Of a DNA stretch of 32,235 bases, positions 284 through 27,745 are shown one piece after another; positions within the stretch are counted from its first letter, which is position 1, and each line of letters opens with the position of its first letter. A program made the position numbers and the translations under genes. The notes beneath the pieces were generated by a model that did not search any database, was not told the DNA's origin, and saw only the letters and a list, made by a program, of their open reading frames with translations. The stretch is from a bacterium (lineage in GTDB: Bacteria > UBA9089 > CG2-30-40-21 > SBAY01), in the NCBI GenBank assembly GCA_040757115.1, contig JBFLYA010000016.1:1-32235 (forward strand), given 5' to 3'.

Positions 284-647
284 TTATTTATAAAATTAAT
301 CACTAAACCTACTTTCTTCCCGGTGAGTTTTAAGTAAGTAATTGTTGTCTCCATAGTGCCCTTAATAATCTTCTCTGTAACCACATTTATCTTTTCGTAA
401 GCGTTCAGGTGGTGTAACAAAAGGAGATGTGGAGATTAAGGAGATAGGGAGATATTATTAAAAAAATTGAAATTAATAGAAACTAATAGAAATTTATGGA
501 AATTTGTTGTTTCCCACAATCAATTTCTACCTATTTCTATAAATTTCAATCTATTTCTATTATCTTATCTCCATATCACTCTTATCTCCTTATCCCCTTT
601 CTTACACTTTTGATATATAGCCTGAACGGTTACATCTTTTCTATCAT
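284..647 (-). pseudogene. internally deleted GxxExxY-family gene remnant
   Basis: Removing MITE 397-633 and one target copy gives MIEKINVVTEKIIKGTME joined to TTITYLKLTGKKVGLVINF, the typical N- and C-terminal segments of the family. Confidence 0.75.
397..633. mobile_element. 237-bp MITE with IS66-like GTAA ends and 8-bp TSD
   Basis: Ends gtaagcgttcagg / cctgaacggttac. Direct repeat atcttttc at 389-396 and 634-641. Near-identical copies at 8173-8407 and 32116-end. Contains two nested inverted repeat arrays. Confidence 0.92.
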
Positions 648-4192: not shown

Positions 4193-4436
4193 GTAACCGT
4201 TCAGGTGGAAATTTACCGCAGAGACGCAGAGGAACAGAGAAATAAATCAGATAACAGAAAAGATTATTGAGGTAATCATTGTCATACATAGGACATCAAA
4301 ACCAAATTATTAATCAATCATGAGATGTCGGGCCTCAAAAGCTTGCTCTGATGAAAATCAGGAATGGAATTCTGCGTATGGTAAATAGTTTTTAATTTTT
4401 TCTCTGCGTCTCTGTGTCTCTGCGGTGAACGGTTAC
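4193..4436. mobile_element. 244-bp GTAA-MITE with 8-bp TSD carrying an ACCGCAGAG-arm cassette
   Basis: gtaaccgttca / tgaacggttac. catttctt at 4185-4192 and 4437-4444. Arms span 4215-4426. Confidence 0.9.
4239..4395 (+). pseudogene. degraded GxxExxY gene remnant
   Basis: EINQITEKIIEVIIVIHRT ... KIRNGILRMVNSF*, resembling the family N- and C-termini. Confidence 0.7.
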
Positions 4437-6582: not shown

Positions 6583-6602
6583 TTTTCTGTACCTCCTTTA
6601 AT

Positions 6603-7065
6603 AAGTAGAGAGTAGAAAGTAGAGAGTAGAGAGATTATTCCCATTTCGCAATTAGTGAATGAAGCATTGCTCTAATCTCATTTAAAACTTGTAGTCTCTT
6701 CTCTATTATTTTTTCAGGCAACAACTTTCTTAACCTCCTATATCTACCCCTACTTTCTCCTACTGAACCTTTAGACATTCTAAAGAAATTCTTAATTTCT
6801 TTTCCCGACTTTCGTTCATATCCTTCTTCCATATTAGCACAGATAGAATCTAAACTTCTCAATTGATTCGATGCTAATATCCTACCTGCAAAACTCTTTT
6901 GAAGCACAGGTAAATCTTCTTCTAAAAAATCTTCAAATAGTCTAACTGCTTTTTGATAAACTTCAAAGTCCTCTACACTCTTTATTGGTTTTCTCTCCAT
7001 TCTCTCTTCTCTCTTCTCTTTTCTCTTTTCTCTCTACTCTCTACTCTCTACTCTCTACTCTCTAC
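6603..7065. mobile_element. heptamer-arm cassette (AGAGAGT)n...(ACTCTCT)n enclosing an intact four-helix-bundle gene
   Basis: Arms 6603-6634 and 7001-7065 directly abut the gene stop and start. Confidence 0.85.
6635..7000 (-). CDS. four helix bundle protein (23S rRNA IVS-protein / TIGR02436-like)
   Basis: EDFEVYQKA, QLRSLDSICANMEEGYER, FFRMSKGSVGE motifs. Confidence 0.9.
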   Translation of the reverse strand: MERKPIKSVEDFEVYQKAVRLFEDFLEEDLPVLQKSFAGRILASNQLRSLDSICANMEEGYERKSGKEIKNFFRMSKGSVGESRGRYRRLRKLLPEKIIEKRLQVLNEIRAMLHSLIAKWE

Positions 7066-8156: not shown

Positions 8157-8451
8157 GCCACAGAGACTTTTTGTAAACATTCAGGTGGTGTAACAAAAGG
8201 AGATGTGGAGATTAAGGAGATAGGGAGATATTATTAAAAAATTGAAATTAGTAGAAACTAATAGAAATTATGGAAATTTGTTGTTTCCCACAATCAATTT
8301 CTACCTATTTCTATAAATTTCAATCTATTTCTATTATCTTATCTCCATATCACTCTTATCTCCTTATCCCCTTTCTTACACTTTTGATATATAGCCTGAA
8401 CGGTTACGACTTTTTATTATTTCTTTGTGAACTCTGTGCCTCTGTGGCTAA
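8157..8451. mobile_element. empty GCCACAGAG-arm cassette between dsrA and dsrB, interrupted by a MITE
   Basis: gccacagag ... ctctgtgcctctgtggctaa. Confidence 0.75.
8173..8407. mobile_element. 235-bp copy of the GTAA-MITE with 8-bp TSD
   Basis: Near-identical to 397-633. gacttttt at 8165-8172 and 8408-8415. Confidence 0.92.
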
Positions 8452-12900: not shown

Positions 12901-14577
12901 ACCATCTGTTTGTAGATTGTATGGTTGGTTATTATAGATGTTATTATAAATAAGTTCAGAAATTACTGAGGATTTACAGTAAATTCCGACGCCATTACCA
13001 TTTGGATTACCAGTACCACCTGTATTATCTTTGAAAGTATTATCATTAATAATGGTATTATTATCTGAGGAAATTAAGTAGACTCCACAACCTACACCAC
13101 CGCTACCCATAGAACTGCCTCCTGGTCCTCCCTCACCACCTCTGTTATCTAATATGATATTTCTTACTATGATGGTTGAGGTAGAAAAAGATAGTAATAT
13201 CCCTCCTCCAATATTACCTGGACCTCCCTGACTATAATCACTTTTTCCTCCTTGACCACCTCTATTGTTTGATATGGTATTATATATGATAGTATTTTCT
13301 ATTGAAGATAAAAAATATATCCCATATCCTATACCACCTGCACCACCAGAAGAAGGCATACCTTTAACACTACTTGTACCGCCTTGTCCCCCTTTGTTAT
13401 ATGAGATGGTATTAAATGAGATAGTATTTCTTGTTGAAGATCCAAGATATATCCCCCCTCCTACACCACCTACACCAGCATCACCGATAGCGTCAGGTAC
13501 TACTTCTCCCCCTTGTCCTCCTTTGTTATGTGATATGTTATTATATAAGATAGTATTTTCCATAGAAGTCATGAGATATACACCTATTCCATCGCCACCT
13601 GCACTCATTCCCTTCCCTGCAAGGTTAAGTCCCCTACCACCATCTCCTCCTCCTATTCTTAGAAATGAATTATTTTTTACATTATTATGATTTGCATCAT
13701 ATAAATATAACCCTACTCCAATTCCTCCATTACCCCAATTATCTCCTCCTAATCCTCCTGTAATATTCATAATATTATTTTCATATAGTTCATTATTATT
13801 AGATGAACTAATAAAGATTCCAATTCCCTCACCTGTAGTTATGTTCCAGAAACCTCCCTGTCCACCTTGAATATCATAGATATTATTACTACTAATTTTG
13901 TTCTTTTCAGATGAATTTAGCAATATTCCTATTCCTTTACCTCCATTTCCTCCAATGGTAAATGGATATGCTCCATCACCACCTTTACCACCTATTATAT
14001 TCATTATAGTATTGTTCTCTATAACATTAGAGTCTGCTGAAAATAGAGAAATTGCACTTGCTATTCCTCCATCGTTACCTACTCCAATTCCATCATCTCC
14101 TTTATGATTGGCAATTACATTATTATTAATTATAACATTAATCACATTTTCTAAATATATAGCTTGTTGACCATATTTGATTACACAATACTTAATTATA
14201 CTTCCATTACCTCCATTACCACTAACCTTAATTCCATTCCAATCTCCTGCCTGAGCAATAGTAGAAGTTCCTTGACCATTGGTTTCATCTTTAAAGGAGG
14301 TAAAAACAATCTTATTTGTTTCCTCGCCAGTAGCATTTAGAAAACCATAAGAAATCAAAGAAGTACCTGTAGCAAACTTTACTACTACCCCTGGCTCAAT
14401 TGTTAAAGTATTACCAAGTTCTACAATAACAGTTCCCGTGACAATATATGGACTATTCGTAGCCAACCAGGTGCCACTTTGAGTTCCAGTTACAGTAATA
14501 GTTGCTAAACTAATTCTTACCTCACTCATTAACCCCATAATCATTAAAATCCCAAACAAAAAAATTCTCTTAAGCAT
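9943..14577 (-). CDS. large secreted protein: Gly-rich parallel beta-helix repeats, IPT/TIG-like domains, cohesin-dockerin-cohesin, C-terminal T9SS/FlgD-like sorting domain
   Basis: Signal peptide; repeated NTI..N.I..N.GG.GG; LDFD..LEV and LSFDP.LLEV cohesin-like segments; GDSNNDGVVDIED / DYNGDERINIDD dockerin; VYPNPF...KIFNLAGELV...WDG...ASGVYIY C-terminus. Confidence 0.85.
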   Translation of the reverse strand: MLKRIFLFGILMIMGLMSEVRISLATITVTGTQSGTWLATNSPYIVTGTVIVELGNTLTIEPGVVVKFATGTSLISYGFLNATGEETNKIVFTSFKDETNGQGTSTIAQAGDWNGIKVSGNGGNGSIIKYCVIKYGQQAIYLENVINVIINNNVIANHKGDDGIGVGNDGGIASAISLFSADSNVIENNTIMNIIGGKGGDGAYPFTIGGNGGKGIGILLNSSEKNKISSNNIYDIQGGQGGFWNITTGEGIGIFISSSNNNELYENNIMNITGGLGGDNWGNGGIGVGLYLYDANHNNVKNNSFLRIGGGDGGRGLNLAGKGMSAGGDGIGVYLMTSMENTILYNNISHNKGGQGGEVVPDAIGDAGVGGVGGGIYLGSSTRNTISFNTISYNKGGQGGTSSVKGMPSSGGAGGIGYGIYFLSSIENTIIYNTISNNRGGQGGKSDYSQGGPGNIGGGILLSFSTSTIIVRNIILDNRGGEGGPGGSSMGSGGVGCGVYLISSDNNTIINDNTFKDNTGGTGNPNGNGVGIYCKSSVISELIYNNIYNNQPYNLQTDGTQTAEYNWWGSDPPATSTFSGNIDYDPWLKGTYTSPTITEISPTAGTIGTLVIIKGRGYIPTEGVQINFGTTLTITSVTTDLSGKFTAIFTTDTQPYGTTSIIATELLTGKKANGFFFITGGRIYILTPISGTVGTIITLSGNGYGRTEDIVIHFGTIRSIATSIASDAGTFSTTFTFPLMVRGTKTVTATGLKTLVSANAFFNVLCSTRLEIKPGSKIVTKGDEFGIDIWLKDVVNLAGLDVFLDFDHNRLEVLDDNPVEEGIQITQGPFPPEASLLYAAATNTSGQIAYSLILVPATNTADGSGILAKIRFKAKAPGTATIYFVFDKPDNRWTVLKDSDNQPIPVTTYGGTVTIFEYGSMEGYVIIDPPKDTGTNAGISITLVGVGTTSTGIGGYYTFLEVIPGTYTLQADTLGVALGTITGIVVYPGTKTIVATLTLLNGDSNNDGVVDIEDFMVLRNAYLSVIGDGRWNEESDYNGDERINIDDAMILRNSFFKTQPSPAPAPPAPAPPVKLPVKLAKTKLTFSPSAIDTFVGATFSVRIMIENVEDLAACQAQLSFDPNLLEVINLTTGNIGLPVIKSQFGVDTVDYAGGLLEGKVYESGILAEIEFKVKDSGITEIKFDFNPAKYRMTKMIDINSQAILFDVNEVKVNAKAISPLDHFEFDKIDSPKVDGIPFNVTIKALDIGNKIVDDYNNTGTLSLHNISGTITPKVITFGSGTWQGTVAISGTGTQVFICVRSSGKVGTSSLFEVKAINVPKESNEDILIKSEDEKAVVVIEKGSPNQDAYVEITKVTTPPSVPPNIPQDVSPVVIEINVVTAPKTKLEIKGSITLSYTDEQVKGLDESRLRIFYYTGSGWELAASNQEVDTFNNRITAYITHFSIYAIGNLVAPNLSNVQVYPNPFKPTTVHSGKYITFKNLTSYWNLKIFNLAGELVDEKTGDTNEAHWDGNNQAGNSCASGVYIYLITNDRNEKVTGRVVVIR

Positions 14578-23125: not shown

Positions 23126-24118
23126 ATCCTTTTCCACCGGGATACCCACCTGTTTCATTCTTTCGCGGTAGTGCTCTTCGTATTCTTCATAAGTATGAAC
23201 TTTTACTGGATAATTCCACGGATTAATATGTCTTTTCATCCGATTATTATTTGCCAGATTTCGAGTTGGACTCAGGAAAATTCCTCCCATATGCACCAGT
23301 TTGCTAAATGGGAAATATATCAACAAGATGCAAACTAAAAACAGGTGGATATAAAAGATGACATTCACATCCGCAGGAATTACCGGTTGAAATCTTAACA
23401 ATCCTAAGGTATATGCCTTTAAACTCACCACATCAACCTTCACAAAATACCTCATCAGAATACCTGAAATGGCTATGGCAATGATTAAAAGAAGAGGGAA
23501 GTAATCCGCAATAGGTAATGAGATGTAATAGACTTTAGGGCTTAATATTCTACGGAGTAAAAGAAACGATATTCCAGCCAAAAGTCCAACTCCGGATAAG
23601 AATACCACCGGTGAACCTATCTCCATAAATCCATCCAGCCTACAAATCAGACTGATACAAGAAGGCACTGGCTCAATAAATAACCGACAATGTCTAATGA
23701 CAACAATAAAAAAAGACCAATGAAAGATTAATGCCGCAAGCCAGAGTAATTTTTCTTCGAGATGAAGAAAGTAAGGACCCTGTTTTAATTGGGTTTGTGT
23801 ATTGCGGAAAAGTGAGCGAAAGAGAAGAATCTCTAAAACCATTCTTCCGATAGCCCCAATACCTGTTGCTGGATTTTCAAAACAGGCACTTTTAATCCAG
23901 GGAAGTGATTTTTGCTGTCCACAGGTCGTTGGTATGCGGAAAGGAACAGGAGATTGTGCCCATCGGACAATGCGCCAAAGGACACCAACAATAAAAATAA
24001 AAATAGCTAAATACGGAATGATAACTCCAAAAAGTAGATGCAGATTTGCAGTTTCTATTCCCAGATATGCCAGTAAAACTAATATTATCACGGCTAATAA
24101 CGGTAATAAAACTTTCAT
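23123..24118 (-). CDS. dsrM: DsrM NarI-like membrane cytochrome b
   Basis: SPVPFRIPTTCGQQKSLPWIK, FHWSF...RH, YFPFSKLVH...SPTRN. ATGA overlap with dsrT. Confidence 0.96.
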   Translation of the reverse strand: MKVLLPLLAVIILVLLAYLGIETANLHLLFGVIIPYLAIFIFIVGVLWRIVRWAQSPVPFRIPTTCGQQKSLPWIKSACFENPATGIGAIGRMVLEILLFRSLFRNTQTQLKQGPYFLHLEEKLLWLAALIFHWSFFIVVIRHCRLFIEPVPSCISLICRLDGFMEIGSPVVFLSGVGLLAGISFLLLRRILSPKVYYISLPIADYFPLLLIIAIAISGILMRYFVKVDVVSLKAYTLGLLRFQPVIPADVNVIFYIHLFLVCILLIYFPFSKLVHMGGIFLSPTRNLANNNRMKRHINPWNYPVKVHTYEEYEEHYRERMKQVGIPVEKD

Positions 24119-24561
24119 TTGACACCCCACTTCATCATTTCATTTGTCTGAAGTTGATAAATCTTTTCTCTGCATTTCATAAATATATCAAACGAAATCG
24201 TTGCTAATCTATCTATTTTAGATTCAAGGGCTAATAATTCATTATATTCACTGCCAATTTTCTCTCTAATTGCCTGTTTTAGAACGAAAATAAAGGATAT
24301 AGCTTGTGAGGGAGCAACTCCCTGCACTGCTTTAATTTTGATTATATCCTCTAAAAATTTATCTACACCCTTGTTTTGAATAATTCCATCAAAAATGCCT
24401 TCAATCCCTTTTCTGATTGTCCATCCTACTGGATTAGCGAATTGGTTTTTCTCTGTTTTTACAAACTCTGCCGTCTGTTGTGGATAGGTATTAAGTATCA
24501 AATCAAACCATCTGTTGATAATAGATTCCTTTTTTCTTAATAAGACATCATTTAATTCCAT
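24115..24561 (-). CDS. dsrT: DsrT (RsbRD N-terminal domain protein)
   Basis: RWFDLILNTYP..QFANPVG..IKAVQ..PSQAISFIFVLK..FDIFMKCREKIYQL. Directly upstream of dsrM. Confidence 0.9.
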   Translation of the reverse strand: MELNDVLLRKKESIINRWFDLILNTYPQQTAEFVKTEKNQFANPVGWTIRKGIEGIFDGIIQNKGVDKFLEDIIKIKAVQGVAPSQAISFIFVLKQAIREKIGSEYNELLALESKIDRLATISFDIFMKCREKIYQLQTNEMMKWGVK

Positions 24562-24581
24562 ACAATTTAAACCCTGGATGA

Positions 24582-24638
24582 ATTGCGGATTGTGAATCTG
24601 TATTTTCAGTCCGCAATCCGCAATCCACAATCTGCGAT
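24582..24638. repeat. empty heptamer inverted-arm cassette (TGCGGAT / ATCCGCA)
   Basis: attgcggattgtgaat ... tccgcaatccgcaatccacaatctgcg. Confidence 0.7.
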
Positions 24639-24649
24639 TAATTATACAC

Positions 24650-25145
24650 GTAACCGTTCAGGGCTATACATTAGAAGTGTAAACAAGGAGAAATGGGGAA
24701 AAGGGAGAATTGGAGAAATGGCTCAAACTTTTTCTTGCTCCACCCTTCGGACATCAATCCTGGAGTCTGCGAAATTTACCAGTAACCCTATTTCTTTATC
24801 CACTGCTCTAAGGTATGATCTAACCTGATTATAATACTTCCCACTTATCTCCTCAACAGTTTTAATCTCTACCACAATCTCATCTTCAACAAAAAGATCA
24901 AGTCTATGAACCCCAACCTCGACACCTTGATAGAATATCTTGACTTCTTTTTCTGATTCAAAGATGATGTTCTGTCTTGCAAACTCAACCTTCAAGGCAT
25001 TGTGATAGATGCTCTCCAGAAAACCAGGTCCTAACTTTTTATGGACATTAATACAGGCATTAATAATCCTATCAGTTAACTCTTCTTTTCTCCACTTCTC
25101 CATCTTCTCCCTTTCTCCTCATTTTTATCCTACCTGAACCCTTAC
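24650..25145. mobile_element. 496-bp GTAA-MITE with 8-bp TSD carrying an intact GxxExxY gene in GGAGAA arms
   Basis: gtaaccgttcagg / cctgaacccttac. ttatacac at 24642-24649 and 25146-25153. Confidence 0.93.
24723..25103 (-). CDS. GxxExxY protein (PD-(D/E)XK nuclease-like)
   Basis: VHKKLGPGFLESIY, RLDLFVEDEIVVEIK, QVRSYL...GLLVNF. Confidence 0.93.
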   Translation of the reverse strand: MEKWRKEELTDRIINACINVHKKLGPGFLESIYHNALKVEFARQNIIFESEKEVKIFYQGVEVGVHRLDLFVEDEIVVEIKTVEEISGKYYNQVRSYLRAVDKEIGLLVNFADSRIDVRRVEQEKV

Positions 25146-25481
25146 TTATACACAGCCAGTTGGCTTGGGCAGACCAGCAATTTTACAGGCTTGTTTTGCT
25201 GGACCTGCTGGGAAAAGTTCATAAAGATATTTGTTATTTCCTTTTTCAGGACCAAACATCTTTGCCATCTCTTTTATCAAAATCTTAATCATTGGCGCAA
25301 TTTGATATTCCTTGTAATAATTTCTTAAGAAATTCACCACTTCCCACCGGCGTTCATCCAGCTCAATATCCTCAGTTTTAGCAATGTGCACCGCGACTTC
25401 CTCAGTCCAATCATCTAAATTTTGGAGATACCCTTCTTCATCCGTCTCATAAGTTTTTCCTTTAAATTCAAAACCTGGCAT
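25146..25481 (-). CDS. dsrC: DsrC sulfur carrier
   Basis: DEEGYL..W, YLYELFPAGPAKQACKIAGLPKPTGCV with both C-terminal Cys (CX10C). Confidence 0.97.
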   Translation of the reverse strand: MPGFEFKGKTYETDEEGYLQNLDDWTEEVAVHIAKTEDIELDERRWEVVNFLRNYYKEYQIAPMIKILIKEMAKMFGPEKGNNKYLYELFPAGPAKQACKIAGLPKPTGCV

Positions 25482-25545
25482 AATTTTACACCTCCTCTTT
25501 GTTTGGCAATTTATCTCTTATTAAAAGAGTTGTCATTATTGTAAA

Positions 25546-25947
25546 GTAGAGAGTAGAGAGTAGAGAGTAGAGAGTAGAGAGAAAATTTTTCCTCCACCCT
25601 GTTTTTTCCCTATTTTCATTCTCATTTGTGAACCCACGGTTCATAGGCGTTTCCCCTGAAAATCGGGACTCGGGACTCGGGGTTCGGGAAGAAAGAAACT
25701 CTCAGCAATTCCCCCTTAATAAAGGGGGTTAGGGGGTTGTCCTTCTCCCATTTTCATTGCCCTTTGTGAGCCTTGGCTCATGTCCGTTTCCTCTGAAAAT
25801 AGCGAATTAGTGAATTAGTATAGTATCCACAGATTCGTATCTTATGGTTTAGAACAGATATTCCCCCTTAATAAAGGGGGTTAGGGGGTTGTTCTTCCAT
25901 TATTTTCATCCCCCTTTGTGAGCCGCAGGCTCATGAGCGTTTCTCCT
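25546..25947. repeat. tandem array of three CCTGAAAAT-type units
   Basis: Conserved site attttcat..tttgtg-hairpin-cat..cgtttc.cctgaaaat at 25612-25663, 25750-25800 and 25902-25947, with variable 86- and 101-nt fillers. Confidence 0.85.
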
Positions 25948-26068: not shown

Positions 26069-27433
26069 TTATTTATAGGCTTTACCTCTTTCCACAAAAC
26101 TGACAAATTGTTGTGCCCAGTGTGGGACTCCGAGGCTGTGGAAATGAGTATATGAGGCAATAACATTTTTATAGATAATTCCATCGTGCCTACCATTTAC
26201 ACCTTTACCACGAATAACATTATAGCCAAAATCCAGTTGAGCAGGATTAGTAATCTGTGAGTAGTGGAACTCATGGCCTCTAATTTTTCCATCGAAATTA
26301 AACCACTGATTTTTAGTGGTGGTTTGCAAAATTACATAACCGTGTCCTTGCGGTTTTTCATACACACAAATATCACACGGAATAGCACCGACCATTTCTT
26401 TAGTTATGCCCTGATAAGATATATTTCTGGCTAAATACATCAAACCACCGCATTCTGCATAGACTGGTATTCCTTGTTCTATGGAGGTGCGAATATCTGT
26501 TAGCAATGATTTATTTTTGGATAAACTTTCGATGAATATTTCCGGAAAACCGCCTCCAAAATACAACCCATCTACTTGAGGTAATTTATCATCAGTCAAG
26601 GTATTGAACGGCACAAGCTCTGCCCCTGCTCTGGCAAGTGCGTCCAAATTATCTTTGTAATAAAAGGTAAATACCGGGTCTCTGGCTATGCCTATTTTGA
26701 CTACTGGCGAAGGTATTTGATACTCTTGTTTTTTTAATGTAGGTAAAGAAAAGGCATCTTTTGAAAGGCTAATAACCTTATCTAAATCTACATAATTTTG
26801 TATTACTGCGGCAATAGATTCAATTACAGAAATAAGATTTAATTCTTCTTTGATTGGAATTAATCCTAAATGTCGCTCTTTAATTTCAATCTCTGATAGT
26901 CTTGGTATAGCACCTAAAATCTCTAAATCAGAATGTTTATAAATGGCTTCTTTTAGTTTTACCTCATGTCGTGTCGAGGCAACATTATTTAAAATTATGC
27001 CTGAAATTAAATTATCCGGGTCAAAATGTTGATAACCAAAGACAAGCGGGGCAACGCCGTAAGTCATTCGACTGGCATCAATAACTAATAAAACTGGGGT
27101 TTTGAGAATTTTAGATAAATATGAGGTGCTGTCTTTACCATCAATATCCAGGCCATCATAAAAACCCATATTCCCTTCAATGAGGCTTAAATCTGTATCC
27201 TGACTTGCCTGCTGGAAAGCCTCGCATATTTTTTTCTCTCCCATCATAAAGAAATCCAGATTAAGACATTCCTTTCCTGCGGCGGCTGTTAGCCACATTG
27301 GGTCGATATAATCAGGTCCCTTTTTAAAAGGCTGGATGATTAGCCCACGCTTTCTCAAAGCCGCACATAACCCAATACATATCGTTGTCTTTCCTGAACT
27401 TCTATGAGCTGCCGAAATGATAATTCTGGACAT
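26069..27433 (-). CDS. dsrN: DsrN, cobyrinate/siroheme a,c-diamide synthase-like
   Basis: SSGKTT, FKKGPDYIDP, ERHLGL, GGGFPE, YAECGGLMYL, GHEFHYS, in dsr context. Confidence 0.88.
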   Translation of the reverse strand: MSRIIISAAHRSSGKTTICIGLCAALRKRGLIIQPFKKGPDYIDPMWLTAAAGKECLNLDFFMMGEKKICEAFQQASQDTDLSLIEGNMGFYDGLDIDGKDSTSYLSKILKTPVLLVIDASRMTYGVAPLVFGYQHFDPDNLISGIILNNVASTRHEVKLKEAIYKHSDLEILGAIPRLSEIEIKERHLGLIPIKEELNLISVIESIAAVIQNYVDLDKVISLSKDAFSLPTLKKQEYQIPSPVVKIGIARDPVFTFYYKDNLDALARAGAELVPFNTLTDDKLPQVDGLYFGGGFPEIFIESLSKNKSLLTDIRTSIEQGIPVYAECGGLMYLARNISYQGITKEMVGAIPCDICVYEKPQGHGYVILQTTTKNQWFNFDGKIRGHEFHYSQITNPAQLDFGYNVIRGKGVNGRHDGIIYKNVIASYTHFHSLGVPHWAQQFVSFVERGKAYK

Positions 27434-27484: not shown

Positions 27485-27672
27485 GGTGGTGTCTGAAAAT
27501 AACTCTAATAGTGAAATCTATGCAGATTTGGTGTCCAAAAGGGAGTAACCGTTCAGGGCTATACATTAGAAGTGTAAACAAGGAGAAATGGGGAAAAGGG
27601 AGAATTGGAGAAATGGCTCAAACTTTTTCTTGCCCTACCCTTCGGACATCAATCCTAGATTAAGACACCACC
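27485..27672. mobile_element. GGTGGTGTCT-ended element containing a truncated copy (27545-27656) of MITE 24650
   Basis: ggtggtgtct / agacaccacc ends. 27545-27656 is nearly identical to 24650-24761, including the GxxExxY 3' end. Confidence 0.75.
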
Positions 27673-27745
27673 GAAAAAACAGGTGGAGGAAAGATTTTCT
27701 CTCTACTCTCTACTTTCTACTCTCTACTTCCTAATTTTCAGGAGA
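27673..27745 (-). repeat. truncated CCTGAAAAT-type unit with (AGAGAGT)n, an inverted copy of 25546-25608
   Basis: Minus strand tctcctgaaaattaggaagtagagag..aaaatctttcctccacctgttttttc. Confidence 0.8.

Follow-up and report, generated by a model that had tools for sequence, protein, structure and literature searches.

How did a small nuclease gene come to stand directly behind dsrC, and what moved it there? The question is raised by a 496-bp element on contig JBFLYA010000016.1 of the bacterial assembly GCA_040757115.1 (GTDB lineage UBA9089; CG2-30-40-21; SBAY01), positions 1 to 32,235 of which were analyzed (this whole stretch is referred to as the window). The element contains a single intact gene of the GxxExxY (PDDEXK_3) family between arrays of GGAGAA words and is inserted at the dsrC stop codon. 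An earlier note, made from the sequence alone, had described it as a passenger mobilized by an IS66-family transposase encoded elsewhere. We compared the element with its copies in the source genome (G000; 4.3 Mb, 462 contigs) and with related genomes, including one of the same genus (G001), two of the same family (G002 and G005), and an order-level relative (G007). The element is probably a non-autonomous member of the IS66 family of insertion sequences (ISs), of the ISBst12 type, moved in trans. Coordinates are collected in Table 1.

Insertion at the dsrC stop codon and copies elsewhere

The GTAA..TTAC ends that had been noticed at positions 24650 and 25145 were read directly in the window. 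The two terminal 13-mers, GTAACCGTTCAGG and CCTGAACCCTTAC, pair as an inverted repeat with 11 of 13 bases matching, and as GTAA-beginning, ISBst12-like inverted repeats they read GTAACCGTTCAGG and GTAAGGGTTCAGG. The 8-bp sequence TTATACAC flanks the element on either side as a perfect target-site duplication, and the copy on the right corresponds, in reverse complement, to the dsrC end, (T)GT GTA TAA, as the earlier note had claimed. The stop codon is among the 8 bases that were duplicated, so dsrC was left intact and retains its C-terminal Cys-Val and stop codon after the insertion. The possibility that two independent MITEs (miniature inverted-repeat transposable elements) happen to flank a host gene was rejected, since the perfect duplication and the existence of copies that share the whole unit argue for a single transposition unit. 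No Rfam match was found between window positions 24000 and 26200.

The same site without the element was found in two genomes of the same family. In both G002 and G005, an rsbRD-like gene, a spacer of 53-56 bp, dsrC, and one TTATACAC were observed, which constitutes an empty site. In G001, the contig carrying the rsbRD-like gene stops ~125 bp short of the site, and dsrC was not found in the assembly. Three public DNA runs containing the stretch, all from one study, were inspected as assembled contigs; no RNA run is listed as containing it, so that these data do not bear on expression. Contigs of X1 bridge both junctions of the element, and a contig of X2 skips 280 bp inside it, representing a deletion variant. 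None of the contigs in these runs joins across the empty site, a result that concerns contigs only and has no bearing on whether the empty allele is absent. As a separate observation, the spacer between the rsbRD-like gene and dsrC contains a small hairpin of GCGGATT/AATCCGC words (24585-24640), and at the same place the spacers of two relatives (L012 and L011) contain a hairpin built of other words (TAGGAC).

About 21 loci on 20 contigs of the source genome are at least 90% identical to the element. Their identities range from 93% to 100%, most being 97-99%, and many of them have internal deletions or a nested insertion. Both family-specific ends are present on one contig at ten loci, seven of which have canonical GTAA...TTAC termini. 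The earlier note's reading called for further copies with distinct duplications, and these were found: four of the seven canonical copies are flanked by perfect and mutually different 8-bp duplications, namely TTATACAC (C68), CACCTATC (C430), AATTTTTT (C51), and GAAAAGTC (C174). The sister copy at C430:14892-15402 has GATAGGTG on each side, and the orthologous flanks in G001 (C759) are element-free and hold a single GATAGGTG, an exact empty site. The C430 copy is a presence/absence difference within the genus, and the family moved recently. The flanks of the C174 copy were not found in G001 at an E value of 1e-30.

Shorter forms of the element were also detected. The derivative on C113 (286 bp) consists of element positions 1-113 plus 324-496, and that on C193 is 197 bp long; these derivatives show the route from the cassette to gene-less MITEs. 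The truncated copy that had been noticed near position 27545 is present as well and extends slightly further than first described (Table 1).

Pieces of the subfamily gene with at least 85% identity were detected by tblastn on 14 contigs, and the gene is complete and stop-free only in the window copy. The C430 gene is full length with one stop, and the genes on the remaining contigs are truncated or interrupted. In five copies (C415, C51, C151, C160, and C345), the gene is interrupted at element position 385 by the same nested MITE of ~189 bp. The C51 copy, whose gene is broken by this MITE, still has a perfect duplication, and the nested composite is also present in G001. These results indicate that gene-defective copies went on transposing and that the gene is dispensable in cis. 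The nested sequence belongs to a third MITE family of ~189 bp, whose ends are TGTCGTGTTGA...TCAACACGACA and whose junction shows a 4-bp overlap (C415 5879-6067 and C51 2939-3127 of the source genome); beside the C430 site, its presence varies between the source genome and G001 (C759).

Table 1. Positions of the element, its parts, its neighbors, and related copies in the window
Feature	Position	Strand	Evidence
Non-autonomous element, 496 bp	24650..25145	- (gene strand; same direction as dsrC and downstream genes)	direct reading, copies, end pairs
8-bp target-site duplication TTATACAC, left copy	24642..24649		direct reading
Right copy of the duplication, TTATACAC (final dsrC bases and TAA stop)	25146..25153		direct reading
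Terminal inverted repeat GTAACCGTTCAGG, 3' end in gene orientation	24650..24662	+	matches C198 IS ends
Terminal inverted repeat CCTGAACCCTTAC, 5' end in gene orientation	25133..25145	+	direct reading
Intact GxxExxY (PDDEXK_3) gene, 126 aa	24723..25103	-	PF13366 2.7e-36; TIGR04256 8.8e-38
Downstream non-coding word arm: GTGTAA, then GGAGAA-type words ~8-9 bases apart	24677..24718	+	conservation, folding
Upstream word arm (GGAGAA words) with ribosome-binding-site-like AGGAG and ATG; encodes the first residues MEKWRKEE	25086..25119	-	direct reading, folding
dsrC, 111 aa, ending ...PTGCV	25146..25481	-	Pfam DsrC 9e-47; TIGR03342 2.2e-48
Downstream gene with RsbRD_N domain (rsbRD-like)	24115..24630	-	profile match
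Truncated copy with nothing but the left end and arm; 97% identical to element positions 1-115	27545..27659	+	alignment
237-bp MITE without a gene; ends of the same type (GTAAGCGTTCAGGT), GGAGAT words, and the duplication ATCTTTTC	397..633		end-pair scan
Further members of the gene-less MITE	4193-4436; 8173-8407		end-pair scan

The end type and an IS66-family transposase with matching ends

The end type of the element was evaluated as a signature across the source genome. The pattern GTAA...TTCA occurs 1780 times, compared with 39-42 occurrences of two scrambled control patterns. When left and right ends lying 60-3000 bp apart were paired, a perfect 8-bp duplication was present in 160 of 1281 pairs and in none with an offset control. 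Among these 160 duplications 147 are distinct, and they contain 75% A+T compared with 63% in the genome, with a weakly palindromic preference (A-rich, then T-rich). Most GTAA-ended elements are 200-250 bp long. The gene-less 237-bp MITE at the start of the window, to whose ends those of the element had been likened, indeed has the terminal GTAA-CGTTCAGG and the layout of word arms in common with it. The 13-mer GTAASCGTTCAGG was counted 559 times in the source genome and 579 times in G001 (0-1 for reversed-pattern controls), and it is present in 22 of the 24 same-phylum genomes searched and in one of six outgroups.

Other genes are carried between ends of this type. A duplication-verified GTAA element on C407 (15465-15948) carries a 23S_rRNA_IVP/bAvd-like four-helix-bundle gene (1.4e-29), as do elements on C11 and C450, and a duplication-verified element of 1942 bp on C444 (4176-6117) carries a YhgA-like Transposase_31 gene of 326 aa (1.6e-46). 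The GxxExxY, four-helix-bundle, and YhgA-like families occur in paralogue bursts. A second non-autonomous family, whose ends are CGACCTGTG(AAATAGG or CGGTTA...), has ~221 ends in the source genome and an 8-bp duplication in 11 of 30 end pairs. Its window copy (1426-1787) has the duplication AAATCTTT and contains a decayed GxxExxY gene as well as GGAGAT word arms. An open reading frame (ORF) of 369 aa in a 1658-bp member of this second family (C137:1161-2818 of the source genome) has no Pfam match and may be an unclassified transposase.

We searched the source genome for the DDE_Tnp_IS66 domain (PF03050). Six matches were obtained, and only that on C198 is near-complete. It lies in a 1563-bp single-ORF (ISBst12-type) IS bounded by GTAACCGTTCAGGT and CCTACCTGAACGGTTAC, whose ORF, one 472-codon frame read through with X, matches DDE_Tnp_IS66 at 5.9e-39. 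The C198 end CCTACCTGAAC-GGTTAC and the right terminal repeat of the element are identical at 15 of 17 bases. In G007, contig C299 contains an intact 468-aa homologue (41% identity) within a 1505-bp IS with the ends GTAACCGTTCACA...TGTGAACGGTTAC, and partial transposase homologues adjoin the same ends in G002 and G010. Ends of the type GTAACCGTTCA directly adjoin DDE_Tnp_IS66 ORFs at four loci, one in each of four genomes (C198, G007:C299, G002:C119, and G010:C116). The transposase with matching ends that the earlier note had expected in the lineage therefore exists, as a pseudogene on C198 and as an intact gene on G007:C299.

GTAA ends together with 8-bp duplications are said to be general to the IS66 family, a description reportedly due to Han et al. 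in 2001. An active relative is ISDge4 of Deinococcus geothermalis, a single-ORF member of the ISBst12 group of IS66; according to a 2026 report, transposition was observed, the ends are GTAACTGCTCAGCA / GTGACTACTCAGCA, and an 8-bp direct repeat is formed (PMC12898284). The end variant GTAACTATTCAGCA of the source genome differs from the ISDge4 end, as given there, at two bases.

These ends might have been served by the transposase of another family that makes 8-bp duplications, the IS66-type IS merely sharing or having acquired similar ends. The second end set, CGACCTGTG..., also yields 8-bp duplications (in the 11 of 30 pairs given above), and the sole matching-end IS in the source genome is a pseudogene, both of which speak for such a transposase. 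However, the four loci at which GTAACCGTTCA ends adjoin DDE_Tnp_IS66 ORFs point to IS66, as do the near-identical ends and the 8-bp repeat of the active ISBst12-group element (PMC12898284). No non-IS66 transposase was found beside such ends, and we regard a transposase of another family as very improbable.

The GxxExxY gene, its word arms, and the separable cassette

The gene had been seen as a single GxxExxY ORF within GGAGAA arms, and this description holds. It is the sole ORF of at least 60 aa on the coding strand of the element, and its profile scores exceed the curated cut-offs by a wide distance (124.9 bits against 22 for PF13366; 129.3 bits against 35 for TIGR04256). An AlphaFold2 model built from 32 homologues has a predicted local distance difference test score of 93.9 and a predicted template modeling (TM) score of 0.87, and its topology is two helices, three strands, one helix, and two strands. 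The best match among solved structures is the Cas4 protein SSO0001 (4ic1; E value 1.5e-4, TM score 0.61, 26% identity). Other structural matches are Cas4 Pcal_0546, MGME1, lambda exonuclease, and the nuclease domains of AdnAB; the Cas4 structure 4r5q is likewise among the best matches. By sequence, the 126-aa protein has no match among solved structures in the Protein Data Bank and no family match in PHROGs, and PADLOC gave only a weak match (PDC-M36A, E value 0.0034). The residues E30 (which is the E in the name GxxExxY), E79, and K81 do not vary among the 32 homologues, and D69 is conserved in at least 90% of them; on the model, these acidic and lysine residues are placed in a PD-(D/E)XK core fold. 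The protein is thus predicted to be a nuclease with a minimal RecB/Cas4-like PD-(D/E)XK core that lacks the iron-sulfur module. More than 2000 GxxExxY homologues are among the matches listed.

The ATG of the gene is preceded by only 42 nt within the element, and no promoter-like or terminator-like site was found between the dsrC stop codon and the nuclease gene. Having no promoter of its own, the gene is likely expressed by read-through from dsrC.

When folded as a single strand, the termini and arms of the element form a long stem enclosing the gene, with a minimum free energy of -136.5 kcal/mol (z -3.0; 0 of 100 shuffles as good). Conservation of the cassette was measured against two independent diverged homologues, those of G022 (also labeled L028) and G009 (also labeled L027), so that the four labels denote two comparisons. 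The ratio of nonsynonymous to synonymous substitution rates (dN/dS) of the gene is 0.07-0.08 at a dS of 0.9-1.3. In the 42-nt downstream arm, 38 and 37 of 42 bases are identical (88-90%) compared with 39-48% at silent sites (binomial p 3e-12 and 6e-8), and just beyond the arm, in the spacer and terminal repeat, identity is only 11/25 and 7/27. Strong conservation of the nuclease and the word arms suggests that both act in the persistence of the cassette itself.

Homologous cassettes were found in other surroundings. The G022 homologue has ends of another GTAAC type, GTAACTATTTACC / GTAACACTTTACC, and no GTAA-type ends adjoin the arms of the G009 homologue. The source genome has 16 full-length GxxExxY genes, of which 6 have GTAA-type ends within 400 bp on both sides, and 18 four-helix-bundle (23S_rRNA_IVP) genes, of which 2 have them; other cassettes are bare or lie within the second end type, CGACCTGTG.... 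All 34 of these GxxExxY or four-helix-bundle cassettes have word arrays of their own, with words that vary between cassettes. Co-variation of the words with the proteins is not counted as evidence, since each cassette is inherited as a whole. These results indicate that the inner cassette and the outer ends are separable layers, since cassettes exist without IS66-type ends or with other ends. For two bare cassettes, own boundaries were sought by comparison with G001: C408 gave repeat matches only, and C211 corresponds to a rearranged, longer locus that offers no clean empty site.

Could the cassette then mobilize itself, its GxxExxY nuclease recognizing its own arms in the manner of REP/RAYT systems (repetitive extragenic palindromes with their associated tyrosine transposases), with the IS66-like ends incidental? 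The strong constraint on both gene and arms, the homologous cassettes that have no GTAA ends (L027) or have other ones, and the word arrays in all 34 cassettes examined agree with this idea. Nevertheless, the boundaries of the insertions are GTAA...TTAC termini with 8-bp duplications, the hallmark of a DDE transposase whose IS shares those termini; copies in which the nuclease gene is broken have gone on spreading; and the same end type bears unrelated cargo, namely the four-helix-bundle and YhgA-like genes. PD-(D/E)XK nucleases are not known to produce staggered-cut insertions by themselves, which also counts against it. Self-mobilization is accordingly considered very unlikely, only a shade less so than the action of another transposase family.

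The preferred reading, movement by an IS66-family transposase in trans, would make the element a two-layer selfish element with an outer IS66-type shell and an inner cassette of nuclease and word arrays. The terminal inverted repeats of 13-17 bp that make up the outer layer would be those of an IS66-family IS of the ISBst12 type (single ORF). A DDE transposase encoded elsewhere would bind these ends and insert the element through an 8-bp staggered cut, and the window copy would have landed in this way on the last dsrC bases. The inner layer would be the promoter-less gene for the 126-aa nuclease, with its ribosome-binding site and start codon inside one GGAGAA array. A long stem enclosing the gene could form from the ends and arms in single-stranded DNA or RNA, and the nuclease may act on the word arms or on the hairpin for the benefit of the cassette. 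Recognition of the word arms by the protein is favored here, with low confidence.

Several observations weigh against movement by an IS66-family transposase, or at least against the element being a simple passenger. The C198 transposase frame is interrupted by two in-frame stops, one TAA and one TAG; none of the other five PF03050 matches is more than a fragment, and none has such ends close by; and an intact transposase gene with these ends was not found in the assembly of the source genome. Such a gene may have been missed, because the assembly is in 462 contigs and repeats may be unassembled. As it stands, present-day mobility in the strain may have nothing but a pseudogene transposase to draw on. 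Neither the C198 IS nor the G007 IS is flanked by a duplication, and the inverted repeat common to the element and the IS is only 11-13 bases long. Three of the seven copies with canonical termini (C267, C113, and C415) lack a duplication. Two-sided GTAA-type ends are missing from 10 of the 16 GxxExxY genes and from 16 of the 18 four-helix-bundle genes, and the strong purifying selection that the comparisons point to on gene and arms is unlike that of a mere passenger. An alternative genetic code that would rescue the C198 transposase was ruled out, since TAA and TAG both interrupt the frame. Of the mobilization proposed in the earlier note, then, the matching ends and distinct duplications have held up; the only near-complete transposase gene with these ends in the assembly is a pseudogene, and the cargo is a conserved cassette that also exists apart from IS66-type ends.

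The pseudogene also bears on whether the element is still active. It could be an inactive fossil of one past insertion, a decaying repeat with an accidental ORF; this alternative concerns present activity only. In addition to the transposase pseudogene, the subfamily gene is broken or partial on 13 of 14 contigs, and no public-run contig joins across the empty site (contigs only), as might be expected of such a fossil. By contrast, the copies are 93-100% identical, most of them 97-99%; presence and absence differ between two species of one genus; and the intact gene keeps all catalytic residues, with a dN/dS of 0.07-0.08 against its relatives. We therefore consider a fossil unlikely, although much less so than the two alternatives concerning the mobilizing enzyme.

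A broader proposal is put forward tentatively and is held to be somewhat more doubtful than probable. Under it, word-hairpin cassettes would be independent selfish modules that capture the terminal repeats of resident ISs and so act as hyperparasites of transposases. In each module, a small GxxExxY nuclease gene or, alternatively, an Avd-like four-helix-bundle gene would be enclosed by inverted arrays of a 7-base word specific to the cassette; the encoded protein would recognize these arms of its own, and the captured ends would be of the ISBst12/IS66 type and the CGACCTGTG type here and of other GTAAC types in other lineages. If true, this proposal would explain the bursts of orphan-family paralogues across bacteria and most of the ~900 MITE copies in the source genome.

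Further word arrays and repeats were observed in the window and at related loci. A bare cassette at 6598-7065 contains a four-helix-bundle (23S_rRNA_IVP-like) gene (6659-6973, minus strand) between long inverted GTAGAGA arrays; it has no GTAA-type ends and shows the same architecture with a different protein. Inverted arrays of the GTAGAGA word at 25540-25606 and 27674-27740 (67 nt, 87% complementary) bracket the whole of a dsrN-like gene of the cobyrinate a,c-diamide synthase type (26069-27433); they may be either two separate half-elements or the two sides of one bracketed gene. At 13123-13604, a unit of ~101 nt is present in four tandem copies, which are spaced 120-132 nt apart and are 63-76% identical. 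When locus L055 (G001:C250) was compared with the orthologous C211 916-2663 of the source genome, G001 was seen to have extra hairpins of ACGAATT words, between which additional genes lie; the locus resembles a row of cassettes with hairpins separating them.

Comparison with known systems

With its exact empty sites, 8-bp duplications, and ends of the IS66/ISBst12 type, the locus offers a clean and testable mobilization route for GxxExxY, a very large family of unexplained function, and connects a widespread orphan cassette with a defined transposition machinery. It also allows two easily confused layers to be told apart, the transposase-dependent shell and the conserved cassette of gene plus word arrays. 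Furthermore, it illustrates that one IS lineage can fill a 4.3-Mb genome with ~900 non-autonomous copies and that an insertion can be precise enough to spare dsrC, an essential and highly expressed gene. In the 2012 survey of the PD-(D/E)XK superfamily, the function of PDDEXK_3 is given as 'Unknown', with 'multiple transfers'. In the literature searched, to which subscription journals did not belong and which was accessible in part, no account was found of a GxxExxY gene carried in an IS66-type cassette, and GxxExxY is rarely named there, apparently in passing.

The element is best described as a mobile insertion cassette (MIC) of the IS66 family whose deletion products are MITEs. MICs such as MIC231 of Bacillus cereus, mobilized by IS231, are said to have been described originally by Chen in 1999 and De Palmenaer in 2004. 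MIC is the field's term for IS ends around a non-transposase gene, as defined in a published article (PMC3281130). The only gene between the IS ends of the present element is PDDEXK_3/GxxExxY, and no transposase lies inside. Like MIC231, the element has IS-type inverted repeats flanking a non-transposase gene without an internal transposase, duplications, and presumed movement in trans. The two differ in that the ends of the element are of the IS66 family (ISBst12 type) and those of MIC231 are of the IS4 family. Moreover, the element is far smaller at 496 bp and seeds large MITE families by internal deletion, and its cargo is a conserved, hairpin-armed selfish cassette rather than a housekeeping-type passenger.

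With the ISBst12 group, the element shares a GTAAC-N3-TCAG-like end, comparable to GTAACTGCTCAGCA of ISDge4, and an 8-bp direct repeat (PMC12898284), and single-ORF DDE_Tnp_IS66 autonomous relatives are present in its lineage. Unlike those relatives, it has no transposase; its nuclease gene is enclosed by word arrays, an interior that is absent from the autonomous ISs (C198 and G007). MITEs resemble it in being non-autonomous, in high copy number, and in having inverted repeats and duplications. By definition, MITEs are typically shorter than ~300 bp and non-coding, which holds for the 286-bp C113 and 197-bp C193 derivatives and for the typical 200-250-bp class, whereas the 496-bp window copy bears an intact 126-aa gene under selection and falls outside this definition.

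The element also resembles ORF-bearing intervening sequences of 23S rRNA and REP/RAYT (REPIN) systems, in which a small gene likewise lies in the loop of a long stem and gene-less hairpins outnumber those with a gene. It differs from REP/RAYT systems in that its gene has a predicted PD-(D/E)XK fold and the cassette contains no HUH/Y1 transposase (the comparison is with the cassette, the genome not having been searched for RAYT genes); having no HUH transposase, the cassette is therefore not a REP/RAYT system. From the intervening sequences it differs in position, because it lies between dsrC and an rsbRD-like gene and not in rRNA. In contrast to both systems, the boundaries of the element and its 8-bp duplication indicate a DDE transposase.

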